Part shown: positions 3,463 to 49,811 of the stretch, one piece after another | Layout: each line of letters starts with the position of its first letter | Position numbering within the stretch: position 1 is the stretch's first letter | NCBI GenBank assembly: GCA_030154045.1 | Contig: JASKKU010000002.1 | Coordinates: forward strand, 7,663 to 71,662 | DNA: 64,000 bases | Direction of reading: 5' to 3' | From: Candidatus Woesearchaeota archaeon | GTDB taxonomy: Archaea > Nanobdellota > Nanobdellia > Woesearchaeales > JASKKU01 | Translations under genes and position numbers: made by a program | Notes under the pieces: model-generated | The model's database searches: none | The model's input: the letters and a program-made list of their open reading frames with translations, nothing else | What the model was told of the DNA's origin: nothing

Positions 3463-4695
3463 TTATTTCAAAAAAGACTTTAACTGTCTTTGAGAATTGA
3501 TTTCTTGGAGCAATTTACTTCGTTTTAATAAGCTGTTTAAGTTTGTACTGAAATATTTTAAAGCGTATTTCTTGGCAAACTCAAGGGCTAATTCGTTTGA
3601 AGAAAACCTTAATGGTTTTGTGTTTAGAACTTTTTTCACAGTTTCCCTAACCACCCACACACCTAAAGGAGCCCAATACTCCTTTGTAATGAACCGAATT
3701 AGCAGAACACTAGCTTGCTTTTTCTTGTCTTCTAAATGTTGTAAAAGAGATAGCCTTGCAGCATAATAACCGCCAGCCGTTTCTTTAGCATATTCTTTTC
3801 TTCCAAAAGAACTCTCATAATTTGTAGTATATCTTAACGGTTCTCTATTTGCAGAGAAATTTGATTCAAAAACAGGGATTTCAAACAATTCATACTTAAA
3901 AGTTCCTGGCAAAAAGATTGCGAGAAAGTAATTCCCATAATCTCCACTTACATAAACTTCAGGCTCTTCAATTTGGTTATACTTTAAAACATTTGATATA
4001 AGGTTTCTGCTAGTAATATCATCAACAGCAGTAATTGACCATCTCGTTGGTACAAACTTTGAGTTAATTCTATTTCCAAGTAATCCTGTTGAGAACACTT
4101 TTGTGATGTAGTAAACATCAAATCTTCTGCTTAATTTGCTAACAGCTTCATGAGCTTTTAATTCATCGTTAGCTATTTTTTCAACACTATGTGGAATCTT
4201 AGGATTGCTTACAATCCTTACATTTTCCATCTTTGCATTGGGACCAAAAGGTGTTATGGTTTGGTCAAAGTTCAAGTTAAATTTTGGTGCATGCCTAAAC
4301 TTAACTTCTGTTTCAACAGGTTTTTTTGAAAGAGAAATTTCCTTAAAAGAATCAAACAATTTATTCCGTTTTCTACTAGCCAAAGCATTCGTTTTAACAT
4401 AAGAATTAACTAACTGGACTCTTTTCTTAATCACTTCTTTTATAGGCAAGCTCTCTTTGCTCCATTGTTTTGGTTCGTCATGTTTGTCATATTTTTCTAC
4501 AGATAAAGAACCAACATTGATGTTTGGATAATTAAACCTGCTTACAAAGACATTTGGCGATTCTCCAAAGAACTCTTTTTTGTTTGTAGAAATTTTTTGC
4601 TGAAACCCCTTTTTGTAATAAATCTTAGCTTGTATTGGGCAATACTTTCGTCCACAATACAATCTTCCTTTACAGAATACACAATCAATATCCAT
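3463..4695 (-). CDS. NreA-family (archaeal Nre) DNA repair-associated protein
   Basis: The N-terminal zinc motif reads MDIDCVFCKGRLYCGRKYCPIQAKI, followed by FGESPNVFVSRFNYPNINVG. The 410 aa length fits the archaeal Nre family. Confidence 0.6.
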   Translation of the reverse strand: MDIDCVFCKGRLYCGRKYCPIQAKIYYKKGFQQKISTNKKEFFGESPNVFVSRFNYPNINVGSLSVEKYDKHDEPKQWSKESLPIKEVIKKRVQLVNSYVKTNALASRKRNKLFDSFKEISLSKKPVETEVKFRHAPKFNLNFDQTITPFGPNAKMENVRIVSNPKIPHSVEKIANDELKAHEAVSKLSRRFDVYYITKVFSTGLLGNRINSKFVPTRWSITAVDDITSRNLISNVLKYNQIEEPEVYVSGDYGNYFLAIFLPGTFKYELFEIPVFESNFSANREPLRYTTNYESSFGRKEYAKETAGGYYAARLSLLQHLEDKKKQASVLLIRFITKEYWAPLGVWVVRETVKKVLNTKPLRFSSNELALEFAKKYALKYFSTNLNSLLKRSKLLQEINSQRQLKSFLK

Positions 4696-8977: not shown

Positions 8978-9095
8978 AAAGGAGTATTTTCGTTTCAGTT
9001 AAAAATTTTTCCAAATAATCTACATAAAAGTGAAAACTTTTCGTAAAAGTAGAACAAAACATTTAAATTTTTAAGATTTTTACAATTTCTTGAAA

Positions 9096-9374
9096 AGATG
9101 GCTAGCGCACTCTCGGGGTACTCCTGAGGAAAGTCCGCCCATCGCTTTAAAGGGGCCCTCGAAAGAGGGATGCTTAAAAGGCATAGCTCTTGGACAGAAA
9201 TAAAACCCCCTGGATTAAGGATGAGGTTTCCGAAGCTCTTAAAGAGCGAGATAACAAACCGACATTCTCCAGGGAAGGGTGAAACGCCAAGCTCCCCTGA
9301 TGCAAGGTTTAACCGCAAAGTTGAATGTGCGCACACTCTTTAAAGAGTGACAGAAGGCGGCTTATGGCCATCTT
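9096..9374 (+). ncRNA. rnpB: RNase P RNA (archaeal/bacterial type A-like)
   Basis: This is a GC-rich island in an AT-rich region. It carries CR-I-like GAGGAAAGTCCGCCC, CR-II-like AGGGTGAAACGCCAAGC and CR-IV-like ACAGAAGGCGGCTTATGGCC. The terminal P1 pairing is AGATGGC (9096-9102) with GCCATCT (9367-9373). Confidence 0.6.
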
Positions 9375-9464
9375 TTCGTTTATTTTTGTATTTTTAGAAA
9401 TTTTTTAGAACTTCTTTTGAGGAGTGACATACTTTTTTAAATTTCTTTTTCTTTTTTCACTTCG

Positions 9465-26056: not shown

Positions 26057-26611
26057 ATGTATTTTCATATCATGACTGATGAAGACTTTAGCGTTCAAAC
26101 TTTTGAGGGAGAAACTTGCCCCATTTGTAATCAAAAAACTTTAACCTTGATGGAGAGCGAAAGAGAAATCCCTTACTTTGGGAAAGTCATTCTTTTTTCC
26201 ATGAATTGTTCTAATTGTCACTATCACAAATCAGATGTTGAGATTCCTGAACGGAGAGATCCTGTTAAGTACACATTTACAGTTGAGAATGAAGACGATT
26301 TAAAGGTCAGAGTTATTAAATCTGCTGAAGCCACGGTAAAAATTGGCAAAATCGCAACAATTGAACCAGGTATAGCATCTAACGGTTATATCAGCAATAT
26401 AGAAGGCGTTTTACAAAGACTCAAACACCAATTAGAAGGCATTCTAAATACAGAGGATGATCCAGAAGTTATCAAAAAAACAAAAGCTCATTTAAAGAAA
26501 CTAAGAAGAGTTTTATGGGGGAGTGATCCGATAACAATAACAATCATAGACCCATCAGGAAATTCAGCAATCATTTCTGATAAAGCCATGATGACTAAAA
26601 TTAAAAAATAA
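26057..26611 (+). CDS. ZPR1-type zinc finger protein
   Basis: A C4 zinc finger (CPICNQ...CSNCHY) is followed by the ZPR1 beta-rich region. Length is 184 aa. Confidence 0.6.
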   Translation: MYFHIMTDEDFSVQTFEGETCPICNQKTLTLMESEREIPYFGKVILFSMNCSNCHYHKSDVEIPERRDPVKYTFTVENEDDLKVRVIKSAEATVKIGKIATIEPGIASNGYISNIEGVLQRLKHQLEGILNTEDDPEVIKKTKAHLKKLRRVLWGSDPITITIIDPSGNSAIISDKAMMTKIKK

Positions 26612-26639: not shown

Positions 26640-28205
26640 ATGAATCCTCTTAAACTTTTAAGCCTGGCTATAAAATACTATTCCAAACCTGAGATTAAAC
26701 AGGCAATTTTCTCTTCAGCTTTAGAGCGTGAATTTGTTCCCAAGATTATTTCTAACAAAGAAATCAGATTTGGTTCAAGACCAAATCAGGTTAATTACCC
26801 TGATGATATAGATTATTTCTTGAAGTCTAGGGCTGTTTCTTTTCACATTTCAGAGGAAAGATGGATGGATGTATCAAGGTTGGTCTCAGGCATTGGTGAT
26901 AAGGAGCTTAATCAACTGAGAAAAGGTTGGGATTTAGTTATTGATATAGATTTTCCATTATTTGAAGTTAGCAAAATCATAGCTAACGAGATTGTTAAAG
27001 CTCTTCAAGATCATGGCATAAAGACCTTTTTTGTAAAATTCTCGGGAAACAAGGGTTTTCATATCGCAGTTCCGTTTGAAGTTTTTCCTAACAAAGTTAA
27101 CAATTTAGAGATAAAGGATACTTTTCCAGAGTTACCTTCAAGAGTTTTATCCTATCTTTCATACTATATAGACAATCCTGACAATAATTTTAGGACTTCC
27201 CAAAAAATACTCTCTTTAGATTTTGATTTGCCAAATGAATTGATTAAAGATTTTTGTTTAGATTGTTTATCAGAAGTGAACCTTGATACAAAAGAAGATA
27301 CTTATATTCTAGTCTGCAAAAGTTGCGGTCATAAAGAAGAGTTAAGCTATAAAGAGTATTCTGAAAGGAAATATTTTATCTGTAAAGAATGTAATGGGTT
27401 TATGGAATTAACTCATATACATAAAAGAAAATGTCCTAAATGTGGTTCCGAAAGATTAACAAAAAAAATTAACCTTGGTTTGGACAGCATACTCATTTCA
27501 AAAAGACACCTTTTTAGGGCGCCTTATTCATTACACGAAAAAAGTCTTTTGGTATCTTTGCCCATTTCTTATAAAGATATTTTAACTTTTGATAGAGAGT
27601 ATGCTAGACCCGAACTGGTTAAAGTCAAGCATCAGTTCTTGCCAAACAACCTTAAAGAACTTGATTTAAAAGTTGAAGCAACAAAGCTTTTCATTCAAGC
27701 CTTGGACTTCACAACAAAACAGAAGATTGATTTAGAACGAAAAACTCCAGCAAAATCCTTTGAAAACAATGCTAAAACACAGGTTTATATCTCTATTGAA
27801 CCAAAAAATAAGATTAGCACTGAATATTTTCCACCTTGTATCCTTAAAGGCCTAGAGGGTTTAGAAGATGGCAGAAAGAGGTTTTTGTTTATACTTATAA
27901 ATTTCCTAAACCAGCTGAAATGGCAGCCTGAAGAGATAAAAAATTTAGTGAATGAATGGAATAAAAAGAATGCAAAAGAATTGCCTGAAAGCATAGTTAA
28001 AGCTCAATTGAATTATCATCTTAAACGAAACAACATGCCACCAAACTGCAATTCGGAAGGTTTTTATTTAGATATTGGCATTTGTAAGAAAGACCCGTTA
28101 TGCAATAGAATCAAGAATCCTGTTACTTACGCTCTTAAAAAATATATGGCTTCTTCAAAAAATAATAAAAATACTGGTAAAAAACAAAATAAAGAAGGTG
28201 TTTAA
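26640..28205 (+). CDS. priS: DNA primase, PriS catalytic domain fused to a PriL-CTD-like Fe-S module
   Basis: Archaeo-eukaryotic primase motifs are present: LVIDIDFPLF, FSGNKGFHIAVPF and FRAPYSLHEKS. A zinc knuckle (CKSCGH..CKECNG..CPKCG) follows. The C-terminal ~140 aa carry a PPCILKG motif plus three further cysteines (CNSEG..GICKKDPLC). Confidence 0.65.
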   Translation: MNPLKLLSLAIKYYSKPEIKQAIFSSALEREFVPKIISNKEIRFGSRPNQVNYPDDIDYFLKSRAVSFHISEERWMDVSRLVSGIGDKELNQLRKGWDLVIDIDFPLFEVSKIIANEIVKALQDHGIKTFFVKFSGNKGFHIAVPFEVFPNKVNNLEIKDTFPELPSRVLSYLSYYIDNPDNNFRTSQKILSLDFDLPNELIKDFCLDCLSEVNLDTKEDTYILVCKSCGHKEELSYKEYSERKYFICKECNGFMELTHIHKRKCPKCGSERLTKKINLGLDSILISKRHLFRAPYSLHEKSLLVSLPISYKDILTFDREYARPELVKVKHQFLPNNLKELDLKVEATKLFIQALDFTTKQKIDLERKTPAKSFENNAKTQVYISIEPKNKISTEYFPPCILKGLEGLEDGRKRFLFILINFLNQLKWQPEEIKNLVNEWNKKNAKELPESIVKAQLNYHLKRNNMPPNCNSEGFYLDIGICKKDPLCNRIKNPVTYALKKYMASSKNNKNTGKKQNKEGV

Positions 28206-28208
28206 AAA

Positions 28209-28679
28209 ATGCACTGCGATCTATGTGGCAAGGAAACCAATGAAATCTATAAAGCGGAAATTGAAGGTTCAGTTTTTAATGTATGCAGAGATTGCGCATC
28301 TCTGGGAAGAGTTCTTTCAAAAGTTAGTACCAATACAAAGAAGAATATAATTCGGAAGACAAAGAAACCTGTTGTAGAAAAAGAAATTGTCGAAGTCATT
28401 GTTCCAAATTATGCAAAATTGATTAAGACTGCCAGGGAAAAGCTTGGTCTAAAACAGGAGGAGCTTGCAAAAAAACTTGCTGTTAAGGATTCACTAATTC
28501 ATGCGATTGAATCTGGCAGGCACGAGCCTTCAATAGAGCTCGCCAAGAAACTAGAACATTTCTTAGGCATTCATTTGGTTGAAGAGCAAGTTTTTGAGAC
28601 TGTTCCAAAGAAAATGGGTTCGAAAAAAGAGAATGATGAAGTAACACTCGGTGACATTATCAAGATTCGAAAAAGATAA
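28209..28679 (+). CDS. archaeal multiprotein bridging factor 1 (zinc-ribbon + HTH XRE)
   Basis: An N-terminal zinc ribbon (MHCDLCGK..CRDCAS) and a C-terminal HTH (LKQEELAKKLAVKDSLIHAIESGR) are present. Confidence 0.6.
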   Translation: MHCDLCGKETNEIYKAEIEGSVFNVCRDCASLGRVLSKVSTNTKKNIIRKTKKPVVEKEIVEVIVPNYAKLIKTAREKLGLKQEELAKKLAVKDSLIHAIESGRHEPSIELAKKLEHFLGIHLVEEQVFETVPKKMGSKKENDEVTLGDIIKIRKR

Positions 28680-31533: not shown

Positions 31534-32643
31534 TTATTCTGGCAAGATTTTCAAAAGGTTTAACTTTAACCCTTTTTGATTTAGTTCAACCTTTTTAATG
31601 ATATTGAAACCTCTTTTTTCAAATTCTTCAGTTAGGTTTGTTATTATGTTTAAATCTAATTTAATTACAGGCAATACATACTTTTTAATTTTGTCTAAAA
31701 TGTCGTTATTTTTGTATTTACTTAAACTAATATAAGTTATCGCTTTGTCAAAAGGTTCATCGAAAGAAACATCAAAAAATCTCAAATCAATCTTAGAAAA
31801 TCTAATCTTTTTAGCTATGCCTGCAATCTTAGCATTTTTTCTCGCAGCATCGATGTTTGGAAAAGCCATATCTGTAGCAAACAGGTTTATACCTTCAAAT
31901 TCTTTTCCGTCAACCTTGTTAAAAATTTTGTCAAACTCAAAATCTATGCTTGCAGAATTGGATAATTCAGTTTTGTCATAGAACCTAACAGAACGATTGC
32001 TTAAGTAATGGTATGCTTCAAGTATTAAAGTGTTATCTTTGCACAAGAAATCTACTACTTTCTGTTTCCTGTTTAGCTCTGAAAACAATACTAATGCAAA
32101 CGCTGTTAAGGGTTTTAGTCCAGTTTTATTAACGAAAACTCGATATGTTCTTCTTGACAAGTCTATGTTAAATAAACTTAAACCCAAAACGCAATGGAAT
32201 GAATTATTTATTTTTTGTATACTTAAAGTAAATTTCCTTTTAGCAGACTTAAAATTCTTATTAGCTGAAAATCTCTCGCTTAAACTATCCGCAAGTTGAT
32301 TTGCCAACTCAAAACTCTTTGATTTTATTATCTCGTCATTTGTTTCAATAGAAACAGAAAAATCAGAAAGTTCTCTTAAATTAGGGATACTCTTTAAATC
32401 AAGTTTCTCAAATATTTGTTTGATTAATTCTTGTTCATTGATTTCATTTAACTCTTTTTCAAAAAGCACAAACCCTAAATCAGAGATTGATTGACTTAAG
32501 TAAGAAAGTTCTATTGCTTTTTCTAAGTTGGCTTCAAACAAAAAGATGTTGTTTACTAAGCTACCCTTTATCTCAAATCGTTCCTCAAATTCCTTCTTAA
32601 GAAAATTTTCTAAACCAAAGTCTGTTTTAGAAAAAAGTTTCAT
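31534..32643 (-). CDS. hypothetical protein, coupled to gyrA
   Basis: This 369 aa protein has no recognisable catalytic motif. Its start overlaps the gyrA stop (ATGA). Confidence 0.3.
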
Positions 32644-35048
32644 TTTGCAATCTTTGAGAAAGATATAACTTTGTCTCCTTCAGATAACCTAATAATTCTG
32701 ACGCCTGAAGAATTTCTACCATAAACTGGGATCTCCGAACAGTTCACTCTTATAACATTGCCTTGAAGAGTAACAACCAGCAATTCATCTTCATCGTTAA
32801 CGATTTCACAACCAATAACATAGCCGTTTTTATCACTGAGTTTTATATTTCTGATACCTTTTCCGCCACGATTCGTTATTCTATACTCATTAATTTCAGT
32901 TCGCTTTCCGAAACCTTCTGATGTAATTGTTAGTATGCTATCACTTTCGTTGTTTGAAACTTGCAATGAAACTACCTCATCATTGCTTTGCAAAGTTATG
33001 CCTTTAACGCCCATAGAATTCCTTCCTGTTTCTCTTACAGCTGCTTCATTGAACCTTATTGCTTGTCCTTGTTTCGTAAACATAAACAACCAGGAGCCTA
33101 CTTTAGATAATTTAACATCAATTAATTCATCGTGTTCTCTCAACTTTATAGCAATTATGCCTGTGCTCCTTGGAGTTGAGAACCTTTTGAGGGCAGTTTT
33201 CTTAATTAAGCCTTTCTTTGTTGCAAATACCAAGAATCCTTCTTCTAATTCTTTTAAAGGAATCACTGCTTTTGCAGTTTCATCTTCGTCCAATTTTAAT
33301 AAATTGGTTAAAGGTTTCCCGCGAGACTGTCTGCTACCTTCAGGAACTTGATATACTTTCAGCCATTTAACTCGGCCTTTGTTTGTGAATACTAAAAGAT
33401 AATCTTTTGAATTCGCGATGAATATATCTTTCAAATTGTCCTCATCCCTTAATTTAGCACCGATAACTCCCTTCCCACCGCGTCTCTGAACCTTATATTC
33501 TTCAAGGTCAGATCTCTTTATATAATCCTTGTTGCTTATCATGATTACCCAAGGTTTGTCCTCAATCAAATCTTCGAAGTCTATCTCAACATCTTCTTCA
33601 AAGTTAAAATCAGTCCTTCTCTCATCACCATATCTTTGTTTAATCTCTAAAGTTTCCTTTTTGATTATGTCAAGAACTTTCTGTTCAGATTCAAGTATGC
33701 TTCTCAATTCTTCAATTGTTTGTTTTAATTTAGTTTCTTCATCCTTTAGTTTTGTTCTCTCTAATTTTGTAAGTTTCTGTAATCTCATCTCTAATATTGC
33801 TTTGGCTTGGATTTCAGTGAGAGAATATCTTGAAATTAATGAGCTCTTAGCCTCTTCAACACTCTCACTAGCCCTTATTAATTTGACAACATCATCCAAA
33901 TTTTCTTGAGCAATGATTAATCCTTCAACAATATGCAACCTGTCTTCAGCTTTCTTTAAATCAAACGCAGTCCTTCTCTTTATAACTTCTTTCCTAAAAT
34001 CAATGAACTTTTCAATCAATTGTTTGATATTAAATACCTTAGGTCTTTTTCCGTCTAAAGCCCTCAATTGAACGCCGAAAGTAACCTGTAACTGAGAGTG
34101 TTTGTATAATTGATTCAGTATAATGTCTTCATTTACGCCTTGTTTTAATTCAAATACAATACGAATTCCTTCTTTATTTGACTCGTCCCTTATGTTGCTT
34201 ATGCCGTCAATAGTGCCTCTTTTAACTAATTCAGCAATTTGTTCGATTAAAGAAGACTTGTTTACTTGATAAGGAATTTCAGTAATAACTATGAGCTTTT
34301 TATTCTTCTTCTCTTCAAAGTGTGCTTTCGACCTAAGGATTAGTTTACCATAACCTGTGTGAAAATAATCGTAAATTCCTTTTTGATTTATTATTGTTGC
34401 ACCAGTTGGGAAATCCGGACCTCTGATTATTTTGCTTAATTCTAAAATCGTTATGTTTGGATTGTTTATTGTTTCAACAATGGCATCACAAACTTCGTTT
34501 ATATTATGTGGAGGTATGTTTGTAGCCATGCCCACAGCAATTCCCGATGAACCGTTAATTAATAATTGAGGTATTGTTGTCGGTAAAACTACCGGTTCTT
34601 TTAAACTACCGTCAAAGTTTGGCACGAAATCTACTGTATCTTTTTCAAGGTCTTTAAGGAGTTCTTCGCCTATTTTAGAAATCCTTGCTTCAGTATACCT
34701 CATGGCTGCAGCACTGTCTCCGTCAATGCTTCCAAAGTTACCTTGTCCTTCAACCAAAGGATACCTTAACGAGAATGGCTGAGCCATTCTTACAAGAGCA
34801 TCATAAACAGCAGAATCTCCATGAGGATGATATTTACCCAAACAATCTCCAACGATTCTTGCACTTTTTTTGAAAGCACTAGAACTAGTTACACCTAACT
34901 CATGCATAGAATAAAGGACTCTTCGATGTACTGGTTTTAAACCATCCCTTACATCAGGCAAAGCTCTGCCGATAATGACAGACATTGCGTAATCCAGATA
35001 TGAATTCCTTAACTCTTCCTCGATTGGTTGCTCAACGATTCTGCCCAT
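32640..35048 (-). CDS. gyrA: DNA gyrase subunit A
   Basis: [22 protein letters not shown], the active-site region [10 protein letters not shown], and C-terminal beta-pinwheel repeats are present. Length is 802 aa. Confidence 0.9.
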
Positions 35049-38878: not shown

Positions 38879-41800
38879 ATGGGGGGTTTTGGATTTTTTG
38901 GTAGAAAATCTTTGCCGGATTTGGATGAGGAAATTGACTTAGATAAACTGTCTTCTCCAAACGATTCAGAGTTGTTAAATGAACTTAAAAAAGAGTTGGA
39001 AGAATTAAAGAAACAGCAACCGGAAAAACAATCTGCAAAGAAAATAAAAACCTCCAACAAAATAAAAGATTTTAAATCAATCGTTGAGATTGAATATTTC
39101 CTTAAAGAGATTGATGATGCTTTCTTTAAACAAAACATGGATATAATTAAACAAAAGATTATAGAGTTTATAGATAAAGTCCTTCCAGAAACTGCATTAT
39201 CATTTGAAATTTCTTTATTGGGTGATAAAGGGAAGTTGCTCAATAAAATTCATGTTATCAGGGAAGTTTATGGCGACTTAACCTTGGGAAAAAGTAGAAC
39301 TTCAAAATCAGAAGCAAAACAAAAGAAAGAGGCTGTTGAAACAAATCCTAAAGATAATGAAGATAAAAAGCCATCTATTAAGTTTAAAACCGACGAAGAT
39401 GAGAACGCTGTTAATGGTGTAGAAGCTAAAGGTAACATCGATTTTGATAAGCAGGCTGAAGCAATTCACATCTTGCGATTAGTGGACCCAAAAGAAGCAA
39501 TTAAGCTTGATTCAAAGAATATTCGTTCATTAGAAGAATTGAAAAGTTTTATTGAAACATTGCCAGAAAAAAAGTTTAACCTGTTAGTCTTGCCTTTGAA
39601 TCGTAGAAAGAACATTGCCAATTGGATTGAACATGTCATAGGTTACCCTGAGCTTGCTGAGAAATTGATGCTGTGCGAAACTAGAGACGAAATCCATTCA
39701 GTTCTTGATGAAATGTATGAGAGAGTTAAAGACCTTGTTGTTTATGGAAAAATAAATTCCGAGGAAGAAAACGTGAATCTTTTGCCTGATTCTGATTCAA
39801 ACGAGTTAGAAAGTGATAAGCCATCTACAGAGAATACAAACAAGGATTCTGATTTAGACAAAGAATCTCAAAAGAATAACATGAATATTAAAACCCCAAT
39901 TTTAAAATCTGAAAGTAATGCTGAACTTGAAGATGAAAACTTCCAGGAAGTTTCAGAACTTGACCAACAAAACGAGAACAATTTGAGCAGGATCCTTGAG
40001 CAATTGCCTTTGCTTTCAGAGGAACAATTCAAACAGAAACGGCCAGAAATTTTTAATATTTTTTTAAAAAATAAAATATCAAAGAAAGAACTCTTATTAT
40101 TTGTGAAGTGCAAAACCAAAGATGAGTTTGCCCAAACTTTAGAAGAATTTTTGTATTCTAGACCTGAGTTTGAAAATTCTCTTAAAAAACTCACGAAAGA
40201 TGAGACTACTTCCCTAGAAAAAGAATTAAGTTCCATCCTTGCTCTTACACAAATCAAAGAAAGCATTTCAGATGAAGCGCCTATTGAAGAAACAAATCAG
40301 CCTGAAACACAACAAAAAACCAAAAAACGTTCCATCTTCAAATTTGGAACCGAAAAGAAAACTGATGCTGTTGCTTCTAATCAAAAATCTCCTAAATTAA
40401 ATCCTGAACCTCAACTTGATTCCCAACTTGTTCTGCAAGATGACCTAAGCAACATCAAAAGACAAACAACTTTAAATCAAAAAGTAGGCAATAAACAAAA
40501 TCCAAAATTAGAGAACGCTTTTAGTGGTTCAATTAAGAGTTATGATTCAAATACAGCTTCAAGATTGAAAGATGATGAAAACTTCTTTGATTATGTTTCT
40601 CAACTTAAACAAGAGCTTGAAGTAATGAAAGAAAAGAATCTCGATTTGAATGTTTTGCCTCCACCAACCCTTGATGATAAAGCACAGCCTTCACAATTTG
40701 AAAAGGGGTTGTTTGACCTGGTTAAACCAGAGGTCAATGAATCTTTGTTTGATGCAAAAGAACGTTCAGTTGAAAAAATTTCTCAACAAGATACCTTTAC
40801 AAAAACAAAAGACGAGCTTATTAATACTTTAATGAGTGACAAACCTGATACAAAACAGGCTTTTAAAGAACAGAACACACAACAGATAAAAGGTCTTGGT
40901 TTGGATAATATAGGATTTAATCATCAAGCTGAAGAAATTAAAGAGACAGTCAAAATTAATTCTTTGGAGGAATTCGAGAAACAACTTCTTGAGAAAGAAC
41001 GCGAGCTTCTAGAAAAGAAAATTGAACTTCTAAAACGGAAGAGAGAACTTGAGCGCGAGAACTTAAACAAACTTATGCAAAACATCGAGCTCCAAGACGC
41101 TCTTCTAAGCAAACTTTCAGAAGAGAGGCCTTCGATTGAAGATAACTTTGAAACAAAATCTCAAAATCAAGGTTTAAGCAATGAACAAAAGACTAAAACT
41201 TTAGCAGATAATAAGCTTAAAACTCAGTCTTTGTCTATACAAGAAGCACACCAAGGAGCTAAAGTTGTGAAACCAGAAAACTCAAACGAACTTTTCGAAG
41301 TGAAAAAAGCGATTGATGAAATACAAAAAACTGTTAGTGAAATAAACCGAAAATTAACTTCAACAGAAAAAGAGGATTTATTCAATCAAAGCAATGTTAC
41401 CATAAAAACATTTAAAGAAAGTGCTAGAGATACTACAAAAAATAATGAGCAAATCTTAAATAATGCTGATGAGTTTTCTCTTGATGATCTTATATCTCTT
41501 GTTGACAATTTTTTAGGCAGAGATTCTTTTGATGATGCTGAAAAAATTATCATGAAAGCAAGAAACTTAATTAAAAACAATCGAACTTTGAATTCAAAAA
41601 GAGAATCCAATAATAAAACTCTTGCAACAAAAACAACAACTCACCAATTTAAAACAGTAGAAGCATCTTCACAATCTTCCAAAAGTCAAAAGAGTTTAGA
41701 TGCTTTTAAGGTTGGTCAAGAATCTAAAACTCAAGAATCAAAAACAAAAGACAATTCGGAACTAAATTCCAAGACTGAAAATCTAGTACAAGAATCAAGC

Positions 41801-42037
41801 TCACCGAACTTTGATAATATAGAGTCTGTTTCAAAAATCCAAGAAGATGAAGGCCTGAAAGCGGTGTCTAAAATTAATAACCAAGATTTGGCTCAAAATG
41901 TAGATTCTCAAACTTTAAATAAAATCTTGCAAGAAATTGATTTGCACCTGTCTCAAAACAATTTAGATGAAGCAGATAAAATAATTAGAGAAGCAAGCAA
42001 GTTGATTAATGCGAAGGAATCTTTTGAAAGCCATTAA
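38879..42037 (+). CDS. large low-complexity coiled-coil protein (1052 aa), hypothetical
   Basis: It is K/E/Q/N-rich with long heptad-like stretches (KQLLEKERELLEKKIELLKRKRELEREN). No TM helix is seen. The terminal segments are similar (DDAEKIIMKARNLIKNN / DEADKIIREASKLINAK). Confidence 0.45.
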   Translation: MGGFGFFGRKSLPDLDEEIDLDKLSSPNDSELLNELKKELEELKKQQPEKQSAKKIKTSNKIKDFKSIVEIEYFLKEIDDAFFKQNMDIIKQKIIEFIDKVLPETALSFEISLLGDKGKLLNKIHVIREVYGDLTLGKSRTSKSEAKQKKEAVETNPKDNEDKKPSIKFKTDEDENAVNGVEAKGNIDFDKQAEAIHILRLVDPKEAIKLDSKNIRSLEELKSFIETLPEKKFNLLVLPLNRRKNIANWIEHVIGYPELAEKLMLCETRDEIHSVLDEMYERVKDLVVYGKINSEEENVNLLPDSDSNELESDKPSTENTNKDSDLDKESQKNNMNIKTPILKSESNAELEDENFQEVSELDQQNENNLSRILEQLPLLSEEQFKQKRPEIFNIFLKNKISKKELLLFVKCKTKDEFAQTLEEFLYSRPEFENSLKKLTKDETTSLEKELSSILALTQIKESISDEAPIEETNQPETQQKTKKRSIFKFGTEKKTDAVASNQKSPKLNPEPQLDSQLVLQDDLSNIKRQTTLNQKVGNKQNPKLENAFSGSIKSYDSNTASRLKDDENFFDYVSQLKQELEVMKEKNLDLNVLPPPTLDDKAQPSQFEKGLFDLVKPEVNESLFDAKERSVEKISQQDTFTKTKDELINTLMSDKPDTKQAFKEQNTQQIKGLGLDNIGFNHQAEEIKETVKINSLEEFEKQLLEKERELLEKKIELLKRKRELERENLNKLMQNIELQDALLSKLSEERPSIEDNFETKSQNQGLSNEQKTKTLADNKLKTQSLSIQEAHQGAKVVKPENSNELFEVKKAIDEIQKTVSEINRKLTSTEKEDLFNQSNVTIKTFKESARDTTKNNEQILNNADEFSLDDLISLVDNFLGRDSFDDAEKIIMKARNLIKNNRTLNSKRESNNKTLATKTTTHQFKTVEASSQSSKSQKSLDAFKVGQESKTQESKTKDNSELNSKTENLVQESSSPNFDNIESVSKIQEDEGLKAVSKINNQDLAQNVDSQTLNKILQEIDLHLSQNNLDEADKIIREASKLINAKESFESH

Positions 42038-42154: not shown

Positions 42155-45100
42155 TTGGGTCTGATTCAAATGAAACTTTTTGGAAATAAAAAAGTATTCT
42201 TATTCTTTTTGTTAATTTTTATAACACTGCTGTTTTTATTTACCATAATTTCTCAATCTAATTTTGCCGTGGCAGGCTGCTGTTTAAACCCTGATAGCGA
42301 TTACCTCTGCCAAGATGTAAGTGTATCAGATTGTTGTAGTAATGATTATTCCTGTCAACAGACCTATTCTGAGAGCAATTGTGATTCTCTTCCTGAATGT
42401 GAACCTGTTTGTTGTTGTCATTATGATGAAAATGGCGTTGAAAGCTCGGCGGTTGTTCTTAACATCAGTTGTGATGGAAACAAGTTTGCGCTTTCAGGAA
42501 AGTCTTGTTCAGACATTTGTAATGATAACAAACCTGTGCCTGTTAGTGACGATTGTAATTTAAGTACGAACCCGCTTTCAAAAATAAACGTTGATTTTGA
42601 CCTATCAGGATATCCTAGAAAAATACTTTTAAATTGGGAAGATCCCTGTTTTGGCGAAGTCCTTTATTATAATGTTTCTCGTATTGACCTTGAATCCCGG
42701 ACACAAGAGCATTTGGATAACGTTATGCAAACTTCATATACAGATACTACCTTTAATTTTTTAACCAAATATCAATATAACATTACCGCAGTATATTCTA
42801 CCAATAAAGTCTACACAATACTCTCTGATACAATAAATACAGGCAATATTGAATGCTGGATGGCTCCTCCAGGAGCGTTTTGTATAGATTTTCCGTATTA
42901 TCTAAAGTACACGGGTTATTTTGGATATGATAATCAAGAAGCTTTCTCAAATTTTTTACAACAGGAGGGTTATGCTGAGAATTATAATGCTGCGTATAGA
43001 TGCGAAGGTCGGGATCTGAAATTAATACAAGATTGTGGTCGCAGTGGAAAGTTTTGTGTAATAGGAAGTAGTGGCGAACCAATATGCTCTGAAGCTAAGG
43101 ATTGTTCTACATATAATTATGATTTAGGATTAAATCCTGATAAAGAAGACTGTGAAAACAATGCAGGCTGTTATTTTGACTCTGGTGAGGGCTTGGGCGG
43201 CTTATGCTTATCTTGTGATGCTAGTTATTTAGACAGAACTTGCTATTCGTATAGGTCTAAGGAAGCGTGTGAAAAAGATCTATGTAGTTTTGCAGTTTCT
43301 ACAGGTGGGTGCGAATGGGTCTCTTTAAATGATGAATTAGGTTTGGGTGTTTGTATAGATAAATCAAACATCAATTGCAAGGATTGTAATTTATATCTTA
43401 AGGACTTGCCTTATCAGACTTGTGAAGACCTCTATAAAGAGGATAGCAGATTTTCAGGGTGCGCAATTTGTGGAATAATTGATAGTTGCACGCAGTATAA
43501 TAATAGCAACTTATGTATAGGTGGCCAAGAAGCTCAAATTGATTTAACAACACACAAGATTATACCTAGTGCCGACTTCTGTGGTTTAGGTGTCTGCGAT
43601 TATTTTGAGACTGATTCGACATGTGCTAAAAATATTGATTTAGACCCTGATGAAAGGGATTGTAACAAAGGAGGTTCAAATGAGCGGGAGCAATGTGAAA
43701 AAGATATTTTTGTTCCACAAGTTAAGTTAAAACTAGATTTTGACAAAGATGATTTTGAATTAGGCAAGAATATAACATTTATTGTCTCTGATAGACGAGA
43801 ATCAGAGACAGTTAACTTCTTTAGTTCTGGAGAAGTTCTCAGTGATGGCTATGCTCTATATCTTTGTGTAGGCTCTGATTGTTTCACCAAAGACCATTTG
43901 AGTTGGAAATCTTTTGATAAAACTTCTGTTTCATCCTGTGATTTAATCTCAGCAGGGCTAAATGTTCATACTTCTAATCCTCAGACACTATACTATTTTG
44001 TTAAAGACCCTTCAGGCAATGTTGCTGAAGTTCAATCTTTGAATATTGTAATAAATGCAACAAGAGTTTGTAAACCAGGAGATACTAGACCTTGCCCAAA
44101 ACAGCAAGGTGTATGTAATGGTGCTATCCAGCATTGTAATCTTGTTTGTCCCGCAGAGAATATTGGTTTTTATTCAAGGGATTGTTCTTTTGAGGAATAC
44201 TCAGATAATACCAATGGTCCGTACGAAGCTTTTGAAACAACTGTAGACGGTTTAGATAACGACTGTGACGGCTTGATTGATGAAGGTGCTAAGAAAGAAG
44301 TATTGTGTAATGGTATTGATGATAATGGTGATGGTCGAGTTGATGAAGGCTATCCTGATTTTGACGGGGACAACAACCCTGAAATTTGTGATTACAATAA
44401 TTTTGATGTTAGTAAAGATAGTGAGGGTCACATAATACACCATCCAAAAATAAAACAAGGAATTAACTTGACAAAATATGGTTATAGATACAATGCAAAA
44501 TATTGTGGCGCTGATTGTGTTGATTTAGATGCTGATAATGATGCAATTGTTGATTCTACTTCCACAGGCGAACCTATTGATAAAGAGAACACTACAAAAG
44601 TTGGCTGTATAGTTATCACTTCAGGTCCTTTTAAAGGGGTTGCAAAGGATTCAGACCAAGATGGTATTTGTGATGGTCTTGATAACTGCGTTAATGTAAA
44701 CCCTGATTGTGCAGTTGAAGGTTACAATTCTCCAAACAAGGACCTTATAGGATGCCCTGTAGATTGTAAAAGCGAGAGCTGTCTTGGAGAACCATACTGC
44801 CAAGAACAATGCAATTGTGATTCCTGTGCTGATTTTTATGGTATGTCCTCTTGTGATTATGCACACTGCACTTTGGGTTGTGGATGTTATTTTCAAACAG
44901 CAACCACTACATGTATGGATTGCTCTTTTGTGACTTCATGTGAAAAATACAATGATGCGCAAAGTTGCAGGAGCAATTCGTGTCATTTGTTGTCCAAATG
45001 TGAATGGAGTGATAGTATAGGTTGTTATACTGATAATGATAATGATGGGATTCCAGATGATAAAGACCCTTGTCCTTTTGATTCGCAAAATGACGCTGAT

Positions 45101-48100
45101 GGCGATGGTTTTTGCTGGAAGGAATCGAATTCTAATCTAGTTGGGAAGACTGTAGATGTTAATGGTAGAACTTTTGTCTTAAAAGGAGGGTTTGATTGCG
45201 ATGACAATAATGATGAAATTTATCCTAGAACAGACTTTGTTGAAGGTAACGAGTCTTTGTGCGATTTTAAGGATAATGATTGTGATGGCTTAATTGATGA
45301 AGGTTGTCCTTGTGTTAAAGGAGACTTTAGGTCTTGTGGTAATCCGTTTTTAGACTATTCGGAGTTCTCGAAATGTAATCGAGGTATACAATATTGTATT
45401 GATGGGGTTTGGTCTGATAATTGTTCGGGGTTTAAAGGTCCAGAAATTGATAACGAGGCTGAACAAAATTTTAAGAGTACTAAGTATTGTGATGGTTTTG
45501 ATAATGACTGCAATGGTCTTATAGATGATAAATGCCCTTGCTTGCCTGATGAGACGATTCCTTGCGGTACTGATTTGGGCGTATGCAGTTTTGGTTATAG
45601 AAAATGCGGCGATGACTTGAGGTTTGAAGACAAATGTGTTTATACAAACGATTCCCAAAAACCTCAAAAGGAAATCTGTGGTAATTATCTAGATGATGAT
45701 TGTGATGGTTCCATAGATGAAGGTTGTCCATGTGTCGAAGGTCAAACAATGTCTTGTCCTGATTCAACTTCTTTAGTTTTTTCAAACTCTCAGAATGCTT
45801 ATACATCTGTTTTTAACTCGGCATGCAGACAAGGCGTACAAAAATGTATCTCAGGAGTTTGGACTACCTGTGACGGTTTTGTAGGCCCTCAAGTGATGGT
45901 AGAAGACCCTTCAACAAATCCTCAACTGTGCGATTCTAAGGATAATAATTGTGATGGCTTAATTGATGAAGGTTGTAGCTGTTATTCTAATCAGAGCTGT
46001 GCAACCAATTGCGGTTGGGGAACTCAGGAGTGTGAAGCCGGGATTTATTCAGATGAATGTATTGGCGCAAGAGTTCCTTCTGCTGAAAAGTTAGATAATG
46101 TAGATAATGATTGTGATGGTTTGATTGATGAAGGTTTCCCTGAAAAATACTGCGATGGCAGAGATGATGATGGTGACGGTTGGGTTGATGACGGCTGCCC
46201 TGATTTTGATGGGGATAATGACCCAAGGATTTGTGACTTTTCAAATCCTCTACAAGATAAAGAAGGGAAGATTCACTTTAAGACAAAAGACAAGAAGTAT
46301 TACTGTGGCGCAGATGCAATCGATTTAGATAAAGATAATGATGGAGTGTTAGATGATTCAGACAGAGACCCTTCAACTCCTTTAGGATGTGAAGTTAATC
46401 GGGATAATGGGATTGCCATAGACACTGATGGAGACGGTATCTGTGATGGCCTTGATAAATGCCAGGAAAGTTTGCCAGGTTGCCCTGTTTATGGCTATGA
46501 CTCTTCAGATAAGGATGTTATAGGTTGTCCTAAGGACTGCGCAAATTCTAAGTGTATAACTTCAAGTTATTGTAAGTGTCCATCGTGTGATGTTTGTGAG
46601 GAATCTTTCTTAATGCCACAGGGTTGCCAGCCGTTGCAATGCTCTTACTGTGCTATGGGACAGTGCGCAATTTCTGAGGTTGGTGAGTCTGAACAATGTA
46701 CTTCTTGTACAAACATAAAAAGTTGCGAAGGTTATATTACTGAAGAAGATTGTAATCGCAATCCTTGTTTAACAAATGTTTCTTGCGTGTGGAATGGTAC
46801 AAACTGCTTGCTAGATACTGATGGGGATGGTTTAGCAGATAATATTGATCCTTGTCCGCAGGATAAATTGAACGATAACGATGGTGATGGTTATTGTGCA
46901 CACCAAGCAAACGATGACTTTGTAAAAAGAGGGGAATTGTTTGGAGGAAACGATTGCAATGATAATGATGCTAGTATTCACATAGGCTGTGGTTGTATTG
47001 TTGATAAAGACAATGATGGGTATGGTCAAGGTTGCTTATGGGGCCAAGATTGTGATGATACTGATCCAGAAAAAAATACACATTGTGACAACGGTTGTAT
47101 TGAAGATATGGACGGTGATGGCTTTGGTAGAGGTTGCTCAGCAGGCCCTGATTGTGATGACTCTAATGCTACGATAACTAATCAATGTGATCCCAGTGTG
47201 TTTTGTTCAAATGGTTACTTAGATAATGATGAGAGTGATATAGATTGTGGTGGAATTTGCGAGCCTTGTGATGCGGGTAAAAAATGTAAAACTGATTCAG
47301 ATTGTAAATCAAATATTTGTAACCGCGGTTTATGTTATGATGAAGAATTATGCACCAATGGAATAAAAGACGATTTTGAATCGGATGTGGATTGTGGTGG
47401 ACCTTGTAATCTTTGCCAGAATGGACAGAGCTGTATTAGTGATTTAGATTGTAAATCAAACAATTGCGTTAATGGAGTATGTTCAATACCTACTTGCGAT
47501 GATAACAAGAGAAACCAGGATGAAACTGACGTAGATTGTGGAGGGCATATCTGTAAACCTTGCGATATTGGAAAGCATTGCAAAGCAAACAGCGATTGCA
47601 TCTCATCAAAATGCGATCAAGATACTCAAAAATGTATCCCTTCAAAAGAAACTTCGGTAACAAAAAAAGATTCAGATGGAGATGGAATGCCTGATTATTG
47701 GGAATTAAAATATGGTTTGAATCCAAATGATGGCTCTGATGCTGATTTAGATTTAGACAAAGATGGTTTGTTTAATTATAAGGAATACATTCTAAACCTA
47801 GATCCAACAAATCCAGATACTGATGGCGACGGAATTAAAGACGGAAAAGAAGTTGATAAAGGTCTAGACCCAAGAGTTCCAGATAAAAGAGGACCTCTCG
47901 GATTGATTATTTCACTAATAATCTTATTGACTGGTGGCGGCTTAGGTTATGTATATCGGGATAAATTATGGTTCTGGCTTAATAAGTACGGTATTACAGA
48001 TTTTGTCTATAAAGCTCTTAAAAAATCAGGAATTTTAGACTTTGTTTATCTAAAATTGCTCAAAAAGACACCGCCAACGCTTGAAGCAATAAAGAAAGTA

Positions 48101-48328
48101 AAGACTCCAAAAACAACACAAAATATAAACATTAACGAAAAACAAAAAGTGATTAAATCTAAACCTGCTCAAGTAAAACCTGCTCCGATTCAGCCGAAAA
48201 AGCCAAAAGTCTCTGAAAAACTTGAAAAGAAAATTAAAGAAAAGTCCAAGATATTTGACGCTTTTGAAACAGAAGATACTGAAAAAAATAAAAAAGATGA
48301 GGATCTGTTTAAGGAGTTTGAAAAATGA
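42155..48328 (+). CDS. giant cysteine-rich cell-surface protein (2057 aa): signal peptide, MopE-like DNDCDGLIDEG repeats, thrombospondin-type-3-like Ca-binding repeats, C-terminal TM anchor
   Basis: An N-terminal signal/TM sequence (VFLFFLLIFITLLFLF) is followed by a Cys-dense ectodomain. The ectodomain has six DNDCDGLIDEG motifs, D-x-D-x-DG-x-C-D-G-L-D-x-C repeats (DQDGICDGLDNCVNVNPDC), and DSDGDGMPDYWELKYGLNPND..DTDGDGIKDG. A TM helix (LGLIISLIILLTGGGLGYVY) and a K/P-rich tail follow. Confidence 0.7.
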   Translation: MGLIQMKLFGNKKVFLFFLLIFITLLFLFTIISQSNFAVAGCCLNPDSDYLCQDVSVSDCCSNDYSCQQTYSESNCDSLPECEPVCCCHYDENGVESSAVVLNISCDGNKFALSGKSCSDICNDNKPVPVSDDCNLSTNPLSKINVDFDLSGYPRKILLNWEDPCFGEVLYYNVSRIDLESRTQEHLDNVMQTSYTDTTFNFLTKYQYNITAVYSTNKVYTILSDTINTGNIECWMAPPGAFCIDFPYYLKYTGYFGYDNQEAFSNFLQQEGYAENYNAAYRCEGRDLKLIQDCGRSGKFCVIGSSGEPICSEAKDCSTYNYDLGLNPDKEDCENNAGCYFDSGEGLGGLCLSCDASYLDRTCYSYRSKEACEKDLCSFAVSTGGCEWVSLNDELGLGVCIDKSNINCKDCNLYLKDLPYQTCEDLYKEDSRFSGCAICGIIDSCTQYNNSNLCIGGQEAQIDLTTHKIIPSADFCGLGVCDYFETDSTCAKNIDLDPDERDCNKGGSNEREQCEKDIFVPQVKLKLDFDKDDFELGKNITFIVSDRRESETVNFFSSGEVLSDGYALYLCVGSDCFTKDHLSWKSFDKTSVSSCDLISAGLNVHTSNPQTLYYFVKDPSGNVAEVQSLNIVINATRVCKPGDTRPCPKQQGVCNGAIQHCNLVCPAENIGFYSRDCSFEEYSDNTNGPYEAFETTVDGLDNDCDGLIDEGAKKEVLCNGIDDNGDGRVDEGYPDFDGDNNPEICDYNNFDVSKDSEGHIIHHPKIKQGINLTKYGYRYNAKYCGADCVDLDADNDAIVDSTSTGEPIDKENTTKVGCIVITSGPFKGVAKDSDQDGICDGLDNCVNVNPDCAVEGYNSPNKDLIGCPVDCKSESCLGEPYCQEQCNCDSCADFYGMSSCDYAHCTLGCGCYFQTATTTCMDCSFVTSCEKYNDAQSCRSNSCHLLSKCEWSDSIGCYTDNDNDGIPDDKDPCPFDSQNDADGDGFCWKESNSNLVGKTVDVNGRTFVLKGGFDCDDNNDEIYPRTDFVEGNESLCDFKDNDCDGLIDEGCPCVKGDFRSCGNPFLDYSEFSKCNRGIQYCIDGVWSDNCSGFKGPEIDNEAEQNFKSTKYCDGFDNDCNGLIDDKCPCLPDETIPCGTDLGVCSFGYRKCGDDLRFEDKCVYTNDSQKPQKEICGNYLDDDCDGSIDEGCPCVEGQTMSCPDSTSLVFSNSQNAYTSVFNSACRQGVQKCISGVWTTCDGFVGPQVMVEDPSTNPQLCDSKDNNCDGLIDEGCSCYSNQSCATNCGWGTQECEAGIYSDECIGARVPSAEKLDNVDNDCDGLIDEGFPEKYCDGRDDDGDGWVDDGCPDFDGDNDPRICDFSNPLQDKEGKIHFKTKDKKYYCGADAIDLDKDNDGVLDDSDRDPSTPLGCEVNRDNGIAIDTDGDGICDGLDKCQESLPGCPVYGYDSSDKDVIGCPKDCANSKCITSSYCKCPSCDVCEESFLMPQGCQPLQCSYCAMGQCAISEVGESEQCTSCTNIKSCEGYITEEDCNRNPCLTNVSCVWNGTNCLLDTDGDGLADNIDPCPQDKLNDNDGDGYCAHQANDDFVKRGELFGGNDCNDNDASIHIGCGCIVDKDNDGYGQGCLWGQDCDDTDPEKNTHCDNGCIEDMDGDGFGRGCSAGPDCDDSNATITNQCDPSVFCSNGYLDNDESDIDCGGICEPCDAGKKCKTDSDCKSNICNRGLCYDEELCTNGIKDDFESDVDCGGPCNLCQNGQSCISDLDCKSNNCVNGVCSIPTCDDNKRNQDETDVDCGGHICKPCDIGKHCKANSDCISSKCDQDTQKCIPSKETSVTKKDSDGDGMPDYWELKYGLNPNDGSDADLDLDKDGLFNYKEYILNLDPTNPDTDGDGIKDGKEVDKGLDPRVPDKRGPLGLIISLIILLTGGGLGYVYRDKLWFWLNKYGITDFVYKALKKSGILDFVYLKLLKKTPPTLEAIKKVKTPKTTQNININEKQKVIKSKPAQVKPAPIQPKKPKVSEKLEKKIKEKSKIFDAFETEDTEKNKKDEDLFKEFEK
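44305..45115 (+). repeat. internal duplication copy A within the giant surface-protein gene
   Basis: Protein segment CNGIDDNGDGRVDEGYPDFDGDNNPEICDY...DADGDGFC is collinear with segment CDGRDDDGDGWVDDGCPDFDGDNDPRICDF...DNDGDGYC of copy B. Confidence 0.6.
46151..46898 (+). repeat. internal duplication copy B within the giant surface-protein gene
   Basis: See copy A. Shared blocks are YCGADxxDLDxDND, DxDGICDGLDxC, GYxSxxKDxIGCPxDC and DxDPCPxD. Confidence 0.6.
47204..47640 (+). repeat. three tandem ~45-aa Cys-rich repeats (D-x-D-C-G-G-x-C-x-x-C ... S-D-C-x-S-x-x-C)
   Basis: The three units are CSNGYLDNDESDIDCGGICEPCDAGKKCKTDSDCKSNICNRGLC, CTNGIKDDFESDVDCGGPCNLCQNGQSCISDLDCKSNNCVNGVC and CDDNKRNQDETDVDCGGHICKPCDIGKHCKANSDCISSKCDQDTQKC. 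Confidence 0.65.
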
Positions 48329-48780
48329 AAAAGGCAGCAATACAACTAAGTTTTGGATTAGTTCTTACAATACTTATTATCGTTGCAATCTTTTTTGTTG
48401 CACTGAAAGGTATTTCAGTATTGATGTCTAATGTATCTCAAATGCAAAAAGACCAATTTGTTTCTGATCTCACAAGTTTTTACAAGCAAACCCTGAGACT
48501 GCCTTCAGGTTCATCCATTCCAGTTAAAATCAGTTCAAAATTTGATACACTTTGCTTTTATAATAAAAATGGTGATGGTTCTTTAAATAATCTGGCGCCT
48601 TATGAAGATGTTCTCACTATAGAAACAAAAAACGTCTTTGGAATATATCGTGGCAAACTTATTCCATTAACCTCTTTTTCTTTAGCAACTCCAAAAAAAG
48701 AGGTTTGTTTTAATAGAACTACCTCAGGCCTGTTTAATTTCACAATGATTTCAAAAGGCGATAGTATAGACATAAAATGA
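48325..48780 (+). CDS. small secreted/membrane protein with a class III (type IV pilin-like) signal-peptide-like N-terminus
   Basis: The N-terminus is MKKAAIQLSFGLVLTILIIVAIFFVA: a short basic tip, a QLSF motif, then a hydrophobic helix. The start overlaps the stop of the giant gene (ATGA). Confidence 0.4.
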   Translation: MKKAAIQLSFGLVLTILIIVAIFFVALKGISVLMSNVSQMQKDQFVSDLTSFYKQTLRLPSGSSIPVKISSKFDTLCFYNKNGDGSLNNLAPYEDVLTIETKNVFGIYRGKLIPLTSFSLATPKKEVCFNRTTSGLFNFTMISKGDSIDIK

Positions 48781-49811
48781 AATTGTTTAAGAAATCTGCA
48801 TTACAAATCTCATTTAATCTTATTGTATCCATACTTATTGCAATTGTAGTGTTTATTGTAATCTTTAAGACAAGCCAAGTCTTTTTAGATTATGCTCATA
48901 AAAAAGGTTCTTTTGATGCGTTTACTTATCTTGAATTGAATTTAAAGAATCTTTATAGCGAATCCGATTATGTAAAAGCAATAGAATTAGATAAACCAAC
49001 ACAGATCTCAGTTATTTATCCAAACATAGTTATCCCAAGGATTGAAAAAACAATTGATATCAATAATAAACTCATAATTGCACCTGCAAATATGTTCACA
49101 TCATCATTAACTTTGTTCAGCAAGAAATCTGAGTTTCCAATAGATTCCATAAATTATTTGTTTATCTTTCCTAAGGACAAATACTTGTTGCTTTACAATT
49201 CTTCAGATAAGCTAACAGAGATTGTAAACTCAGAGTTGCCTGATAAAATAACCAATTTAGAAAAAAAAGATGAATATTTAATTCATAAATTCATAGTTGA
49301 TAAACCTCTTGAGATTTCCCAGATTTGTGGTAAAAAGGATTACTGCCTCGTGATTGTATTTAACTCCCCTTCAACTTATGATGATTTATTAAATATATTT
49401 AAAGACTATAGGACCCTTGAAATTCTACACGTTTCAGGCAATGAAACTTTTGGTAAAGTAACTTTGGCTTCAGGCCAGAATGTAAGTTACTTCGATAGAT
49501 ATACTTTACTTTCTGCAATAATCAGTAATAATTTTGAGAACTATAATGAATTTATTAAGACTTTAGATAAATATGTTAACTTGACTTTTTTAGTAGAATC
49601 TAAAAGGTTGTCTTATCTGTTTGATTTACAGCCTACTGAATTATGTAAAAATTTAACTCAAGATTTAAACAATACTTTATTTAATATAACAAGACTTATG
49701 AATTCTTTAAGTAATGATATTAACGATAATATTTTTTCAGAACTTCACGGAAATCATTCAAAAGTTTTAGAAATAAATTATAAGCTAAAAGAAAATGATT
49801 GCTACGAATAA
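48777..49811 (+). CDS. pilin-like/N-terminally anchored protein (344 aa)
   Basis: The N-terminus is MKLFKKSALQISFNLIVSILIAIVVFIVIF, the same KK-[AS]A-[IL]Q-[LI]SF pattern as the preceding gene. An ATGA overlap is present. Confidence 0.4.
   Translation: MKLFKKSALQISFNLIVSILIAIVVFIVIFKTSQVFLDYAHKKGSFDAFTYLELNLKNLYSESDYVKAIELDKPTQISVIYPNIVIPRIEKTIDINNKLIIAPANMFTSSLTLFSKKSEFPIDSINYLFIFPKDKYLLLYNSSDKLTEIVNSELPDKITNLEKKDEYLIHKFIVDKPLEISQICGKKDYCLVIVFNSPSTYDDLLNIFKDYRTLEILHVSGNETFGKVTLASGQNVSYFDRYTLLSAIISNNFENYNEFIKTLDKYVNLTFLVESKRLSYLFDLQPTELCKNLTQDLNNTLFNITRLMNSLSNDINDNIFSELHGNHSKVLEINYKLKENDCYE

Follow-up and report, generated by a model that had tools for sequence, protein, structure and literature searches.

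The gene considered here occupies positions 26640..28205 on the plus strand of a 64 kb stretch of Candidatus Woesearchaeota DNA, which was analyzed as a whole and is referred to below as the window. The ORF list and identical NCBI proteins define it as a complete gene for a fused PriS-PriL(CTD) primase, starting with ATG and encoding 521 amino acids plus a stop codon in an uninterrupted reading frame. The product is 100% identical to MDK2849473.1 and MDN5327787.1 of a Candidatus Woesearchaeota MAG, the former annotated at NCBI as 'hypothetical protein'. A ZPR1-type zinc-finger gene (26057..26611) lies upstream at a distance of 28 bases, and the gene for aMBF1 (28209..28679) follows downstream after a gap of 3 bases. 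The primase gene has the same GC content as the remaining window (0.32), and it stands among housekeeping genes, i.e., RadA, SpoU, ZPR1, aMBF1, SecY, GyrA, and aIF5B; a class I aminoacyl-tRNA synthetase, a Ski2-like helicase, and RNase P RNA are also encoded in the window. The gene order SecY-RadA-SpoU-ZPR1-primase(-aMBF1) was conserved only at the two closest of 80 related genome loci (L001 and L002), and synteny across these loci yielded no functional linkage of the primase.

Several other features of the window were recorded. The archaeal RNase P RNA was located at 9093-9376 (+) with 158.7 bits. The gene for DNA gyrase subunit A, at 32640-35048 (-), was identified by PF00521 (E=3e-167) and the GyrA C-terminal beta-propeller and represents a bacterial-type enzyme in this Woesearchaeote; Dombrowski et al. 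2020 (PMC7414124) report DNA gyrase as absent from Undinarchaeota. The sole Pfam match of a 2,057-aa ORF with a TTG start (42155-48328, +) is a MopE-like metal-binding motif. The ORF lies in a stretch along which GC climbs from 0.35 to 0.39 and GC skew is strongly positive (0.16-0.29), in contrast to the remaining window (about 0.32). A 1,052-aa ORF (38879-42037, +) had no Pfam match at 1e-5, and ORFs of 344 aa (48777-49811, +) and 256 aa (2646-3416, -) had none at 1e-3.

Catalytic domain and Cys-pair ribbons

Residues 1-330 (26640..27629, +) constitute an N-terminal AEP catalytic domain of the PriS type, as indicated by Pfam, AF2, and Foldseek. The single sequence exceeds the gathering score of PF01896 (DNA_primase_S; 30.0 vs. 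26.8 bits, E=8e-7), and AF2 pLDDT is mostly >90 across the domain. Conservation was scored in 200 homologues, of which 120 were proteins from databases and 80 were ORFs at genome loci. The three AEP catalytic motifs, which an earlier note on this DNA had placed in the same polypeptide as the PriL-like segment, are present and near-invariant in this set, and were assigned from conservation and from spacings in the Nanoarchaeum equitans primase NEQ395. Motif I, with its metal-binding acidic residues, reads W97-D98-L-V-I-D102-I-D104 (26928..26951, +), and D98, D102, and D104 are conserved in 200/200 homologues. In motif II, S135-G-N-K138-G-F-H141 (27042..27062, +), S135 and H141 are likewise conserved throughout and K138 in 199/200. 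Motif III, L281-D282, is followed by R289-H290 and R293 (27483..27518, +), and the nucleotide-binding residues D282, R289, H290, and R293 are each found in all 200.

When the full-length model was compared with the PDB by Foldseek, Prim-PolC, LigD-Pol, human Pri1, and Pyrococcus and Sulfolobus PriS were retrieved at E values from 3.5e-7 to about 1e-3; for the catalytic domain, Prim-PolC and LigD-Pol ranked marginally higher than PriS. Since these matches are AEP catalytic domains only, the search is uninformative on the C-terminal domain (CTD). The ranking of Prim-PolC and NHEJ polymerases as top matches (E=3.5e-7), together with a Pfam LigD_Prim-Pol match to residues 84-147 (E=6.5e-6), would fit an AEP for repair or damage tolerance of the LigD-Pol, Prim-PolC, or PrimPol type, with the true replicative primase encoded elsewhere. 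However, the LigD_Prim-Pol match (PF21686) remains below its gathering score (26.3 vs. 27.4 bits) and spans the motif I-II core only, and the structural likeness to LigD-Pol and Prim-PolC is confined to the common AEP core. Neither a Ku nor a ligase gene occurs among the window ORFs scanned, the initiation residues of the NEQ395 type are conserved, and an Fe-S domain of the PriL type, as present in this protein, is not known from NHEJ polymerases. We therefore consider a repair function very unlikely and favor a replicative primase.

The zinc knuckle that the earlier note had also described could not be upheld. In canonical PriS and Pri1 the zinc knuckle is located between motifs I and II, but residues 105-140 between these motifs contain no Cys in the window protein, and D-I-D-F is only three residues away from helix 108-124. 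Where this family helix starts, the eukaryotic PriS chain 7uy8_C reads 'kCW' in the profile alignment. Instead, eight Cys form two ribbons between motifs II and III, C206/C209/C226/C229 (CxxC-x16-CxxC, residues 206-229) and C248/C251/C265/C268 (CxxC-x13-CxxC, residues 248-268). This double Cys-pair insert (residues 206-268; 27255..27443, +) was delimited from the Cys pattern, Pfam, a PDB profile search, and AF2, and it aligns to a Cys-poor insert of 7uy8_C. Several zinc-ribbon Pfam families match it, all under gathering score, the family profile weakly matches small archaeal zinc-ribbon proteins in the PDB (best E=0.006), and AF2 models it as beta hairpins with block pLDDT of 80-94. Each ribbon probably binds one zinc ion, so that two are predicted for the insert.

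At least seven Cys are present in the motif II-III segment of 185 out of 201 sequences (median II-III gap 147 aa), whereas 12 sequences have no Cys in this segment and a gap of 79-90 aa, nearer to the 69 aa of NEQ395. The relatives lacking both ribbons are L040, L044, L053, L059, L062, L068, L073, L074, L075, L079, L080, and P0108. The insert is thus common but dispensable, and its retention in about 92% of the relatives examined, along with its loss in some, suggests that the ribbons are useful but not essential. Speculatively, they might help to hold template ssDNA. The more specific proposal that the double zinc-ribbon module serves as a built-in template-recognition domain, comparable to the zinc-binding domain found in primases of the DnaG and T7 type, and sets a priming-site specificity unlike that of NEQ395, appears rather unlikely to us. 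Excerpted published descriptions of the fused DPANN primase gene contain no mention of the ribbon insert.

Linker and PriL-type C-terminal domain

The two domains are joined by a partly disordered linker of ~60 residues (331-389; 27630..27806, +), which was delimited from AF2, strain variants, and family spacing and comprises a conserved helix (E346, L350, A354) and, after it, a stretch modeled as disordered (residues 362-385, AF2 pLDDT <50). In the full-length AF2 model (pLDDT 88.4, pTM 0.70), a folded N-terminal domain is succeeded by a helical segment, the disordered stretch, and a folded CTD; a PriL N-terminal domain is absent from the window protein in both the model and the Pfam scan. 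The distance from R293 to C400 is 107 aa, with a family median of 95. Two near-identical strain variants, P0001 and P0122, lack one residue relative to the window protein, at position 371 (window 27750-27752). The deletion falls within the disordered part of the linker, in keeping with a relaxed constraint on this segment.

Residues 390-511 (27807..28172, +) correspond to the C-terminal domain of PriL and include R412, R414, F417, and a K492-N-P..Y497 motif; a Lys/Asn-rich tail of variable length among relatives follows (residues 512-521; 28173..28202, +). The C-terminal part contains exactly four Cys, all predicted ligands of a [4Fe-4S] cluster: C400 within F-P-P-C400-I (27837..27839, +), C470 in P-P-N-C (28047..28049, +), C482 (28083..28085, +), and C488 (28101..28103, +), equivalent as ligands 1 to 4 to C289, C364, C376, and C384 of NEQ395. 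The similarity of this PPCI-containing segment to PriL-CTD, which the earlier note had claimed, is borne out by sequence searches. With the sequence taken singly, residues 384-518 are hit by NCBIfam models of PriL (E=1.4e-7 and 2.4e-7), and Pfam PF04104 matches residues 354-470 (E=5e-4) at 19.8 bits against a gathering score of 22.4. The PF04104 hit is already precomputed for many homologues, and many carry both PF01896 and PF04104. A single-sequence phmmer search of the PDB gave only a marginal PriL match (E=0.014), so a family profile was needed. This profile, derived from 24 family members (residues 386-512), had P. abyssi PriL (9f26_B) as its sole significant match in the whole PDB (E=3.5e-9), and the alignment spans FPPC-x-K..L.G and PPNC-x11-C-x5-C-x4-NP-x2-Y. 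A Foldseek search of the PDB with the CTD-only model had no significant match (best E=5). Foldseek is weak on small helical domains, and we read the miss as reflecting this weakness, although it remains a negative result.

Counted per alignment column, the four Cys are conserved in 187-193 of the 200 relatives. Five apparent losses of C482 are one-residue alignment shifts, and with these allowed for, at least 192/200 keep all four. Of the residues implicated in initiation, position 412 is Arg or Lys in 200/200, R414 is conserved in 199/200, and F417 in 198/200. As judged by sequence, the C-terminal module is a PriL-CTD homologue, and its four Cys are predicted to bind a [4Fe-4S] cluster. A different reading would make it a cluster-free helix bundle resembling PriX, with the four Cys binding zinc or nothing. 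Yet the Cys contexts (FPPC; PPNC-x11-C-x5-C-x4-NP) are the same as in P. abyssi PriL, and the Cys match the NEQ395 ligands and are retained in nearly all relatives, which leaves this reading highly improbable. We also weighed whether assembly or gene calling could have artificially joined two neighboring genes, priS and priL, but nothing was found in favor of this. The ORF runs through without interruption, the PriL N-terminal domain that simple read-through would bring along is missing, and the same architecture was found in 200/200 homologues examined. Because these derive from independent assemblies, an assembly artefact is excluded, and the chance of a joining artefact of any kind is practically negligible. 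The fused PriS-PriL(CTD) chain is hence taken as genuine.

The window contains no second primase. Separate HMMs for the whole protein, its PriS part, and its CTD picked up no other PriS-like or PriL-CTD-like ORF among all 200 stop-to-stop segments of the window, and Pfam scans of 24 other window ORFs found no primase domain. The sequence flanking the 80 related loci (up to 6 kb per side) likewise had no CTD-like ORF. The absence of a separate priL nearby, as stated in the earlier note, thus holds throughout the 64 kb by HMM search. The one candidate of PriL-like size, a 410-aa ORF at 3463..4695 (-) with a CTD-profile E of 0.08, is an archaeal Nre protein (Nre_N plus Nre_C) and not PriL. Two contigs of a single MAG (Woesearchaeota Zod_Metabat.908, JAFGSP01; L026 and L037) each carry a full-length fused primase, which could reflect a paralogue, strain mixing, or bin contamination.

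Comparison with known primases

The closest point of reference is NEQ395, a 393-aa monomeric primase of N. equitans with a [4Fe-4S] cluster (Schneider, Bergsch & Lipps 2023, PMC10250227). Priming takes place at a triplet whose central base is T and yields RNA primers ~9 nt in length; mutation of D87/D89 abolishes activity, and D194, H202, and R205 are all essential (PMC10250227). Mutation of C289/C364/C376/C384 abolishes the brown color and the absorbance at 410 nm, and R301, R303, and F306 of its CTD are required for initiation but not for primer extension (PMC10250227). The enzyme cannot be complemented in trans, shortening of the linker alters the primer-length distribution, and no other AEP domain is reported in the N. 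equitans genome (PMC10250227).

We mapped these residues onto the window protein from published residue numbers and spacings and not from a direct sequence alignment. By spacing, H58 corresponds to H69, D87 and D89 to D102 and D104, S119, K122, and H125 to S135, K138, and H141, D194, H202, and R205 to D282, H290, and R293, and C289, R301, R303, and F306 to C400, R412, R414, and F417; by residue numbers, C364, C376, and C384 correspond to C470, C482, and C488. With this mapping, every NEQ395 residue essential by mutagenesis has a conserved counterpart at the same spacing. In either protein a single chain holds the PriS domain, the linker, and the PriL-CTD including its four [4Fe-4S] Cys, whereas a PriL N-terminal domain is missing; both models have a flexible segment at the CTD junction, our AF2 model matching that in PMC10250227. 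The window protein derives from a low-GC Woesearchaeote and NEQ395 from a hyperthermophile, and the former is considerably longer (521 vs. 393 aa). Its motif II-III gap is 141 aa compared with 69 aa because of the double ribbon insert, its linker is longer by ~23 aa (R293-C400, 107 aa, vs. R205-C289, 84 aa), and the spacing of the third and fourth Cys is 6 instead of 8. On sequence grounds, the Woesearchaeal fused primase would thus differ from NEQ395, the sole characterised enzyme, in its double ribbon and in having no Cys at the canonical knuckle position.

Loss of all four predicted Fe-S ligands was observed in 7/200 relatives (P0052, P0061, P0091; L015:295-1953; L018:5986-7632; L041:5983-7578; L070:5962-7557). 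In these sequences the first Cys is replaced by Ser or Pro and the second by Tyr or Phe, and none is present at positions 3 and 4; R414, F417, and the KNP..Y motif are nearly invariant over the 200 relatives. As the nearest neighbors of the Cys-less relatives mostly differ, several independent losses are suggested. The existence of such natural variants fits the finding that single cluster-Cys mutants of NEQ395 remain active (PMC10250227), and excerpted published descriptions of the fused DPANN primase gene make no mention of relatives without the cluster Cys. These proteins bear on the debate over the role of the primase [4Fe-4S] cluster.

Canonical PriS and PriL (P. abyssi 9f26, human 4rr2/5exr) share with the window protein the AEP motifs, the PriL-CTD fold, and the pattern of cluster ligands, and a role of the CTD in initiation is expected for both. 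In contrast, the canonical enzyme consists of two polypeptides, its PriL includes an N-terminal domain of ~200 aa that docks on PriS, for which the covalent linker substitutes here, and it has a zinc knuckle after motif I, whereas the Woesearchaeal protein has none there and a double ribbon between motifs II and III.

PolpTN2 of the Thermococcus nautilus plasmid pTN2 likewise unites a PriS-like domain, at the N-terminus, with one resembling PriL-CTD, at the C-terminus, in a single chain; it differs in being plasmid-borne and acting as a primase-polymerase (Gill 2014, PMC3973330). This raises the alternative that the gene belongs to a plasmid, virus, or integrated element and encodes its primase-polymerase, comparable to pRN1 ORF904, PolpTN2, RepB', or NrS-1, instead of the host replicative primase. 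The housekeeping context argues against such an origin. The search returned one plasmid match only, covering 11% of the protein, and a PHROG primase match restricted to residues 86-158, so that plasmid and PHROG matches amount to 60-70 aa of the catalytic core; no phage relatives of the primase were found. We see only a very slight chance that the gene belongs to a mobile element.

The gene therefore very likely encodes the cellular replicative primase of Candidatus Woesearchaeota (DPANN), a single chain in which a PriS-type AEP domain, a flexible linker, and a PriL-CTD [4Fe-4S] homologue are combined without a PriL N-terminal domain. This reading draws on features established here, i.e., the domain architecture, the conservation of NEQ395 residues, the four ligand Cys, the taxonomic spread, and the chromosomal housekeeping context. 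The protein shows the marks of the NEQ395 family, with AEP motifs and PriL-CTD in the same chain, four Cys, initiation residues, a missing PriL N-terminal domain, and a host of the same clade; of those of canonical PriS/PriL, a separate priL was absent from the 64 kb window, as was a zinc knuckle between motifs I and II. By analogy with the biochemistry of NEQ395 and with AEPs in general, two divalent metals would be bound by the PriS domain through D102/D104/D282, and the elongating NTP would be bound through H69, S135, K138, H290, and R293. Through R412/R414/F417, the tethered CTD may hold the nucleotide used for initiation or the primer's 5' end, and tethering would allow dinucleotide formation in cis. 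By the same analogy, the enzyme would act as a monomer making short RNA primers, and linker length might help to set where primer synthesis stops.

The host lineage, Woesearchaeota, presumably belongs to Cluster 2 DPANN. Raymann et al. 2014 (PMC3914693), citing Iyer et al., describe the fused primase architecture and extend the fusion to other Nanoarchaeota, a nanohaloarchaeon, and ARMAN-5. According to Dombrowski et al. 2020 (PMC7414124), the fused gene is present in all Undinarchaeota and Cluster 2 DPANN, whereas Cluster 1 DPANN have separate priS and priL, and the fusion is treated as a shared derived trait. The earlier note had mentioned fusions reported in Nanoarchaeota, which is correct but understated, since in Cluster 2 DPANN the fusion is described as the rule without exception (PMC7414124). 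In architecture and lineage the gene has no substantive difference from the published DPANN fused primase gene. The fusion of PriS and PriL has been on record since 2005. It is used in phylogeny to mark Undinarchaeota together with DPANN Cluster 2, and biochemical work on it has been published. The gene represents the standard published primase type of its lineage and the finding is therefore already known: the fused primase is the normal replication primase of Woesearchaeota and related DPANN.

Distribution and annotation of relatives

The protein has more than 2,516 full-length homologues. The best 120 measure about 420-660 aa, with alignments that in nearly all cases span the greater part of the query, and relatives are present in at least 577 GTDB species genomes. 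Among the best 80 of these at least 577, all are labeled Woesearchaeota, Nanoarchaeota, Nanoarchaeia, or Nanobdellota except for two groups, a few titled only 'archaeon' and TPA assemblies titled 'uncultured Methanosarcinales archaeon'. Many loci of the latter title (L001, L005-L007, L010, L012, and others) encode the DPANN-type fused primase, and L001 has the gene order of the window. The Methanosarcinales titles look like placeholders or a wrong taxonomy.

The practical value of the present analysis lies in annotation, as MDK2849473.1 and many of its relatives are still listed as 'hypothetical protein' or mis-named. Some relatives carry the names 'RNA polymerase subunit RPC12/RpoP' or 'DUF1610 Zn-ribbon protein', probably because of the ribbon insert. 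A 631-aa JGI protein (P0008), in which the fused primase is combined with a NUDIX domain (PF00293), bears the source name '8-oxo-dGTP diphosphatase'. Finally, a 'hypothetical protein' of a small extrachromosomal element of M. jannaschii (NC_001733.1:8235-8414) matches residues 97-155 of the AEP core at 48% identity (E=1e-6), and this similarity suggests that it is likely a plasmid AEP primase.
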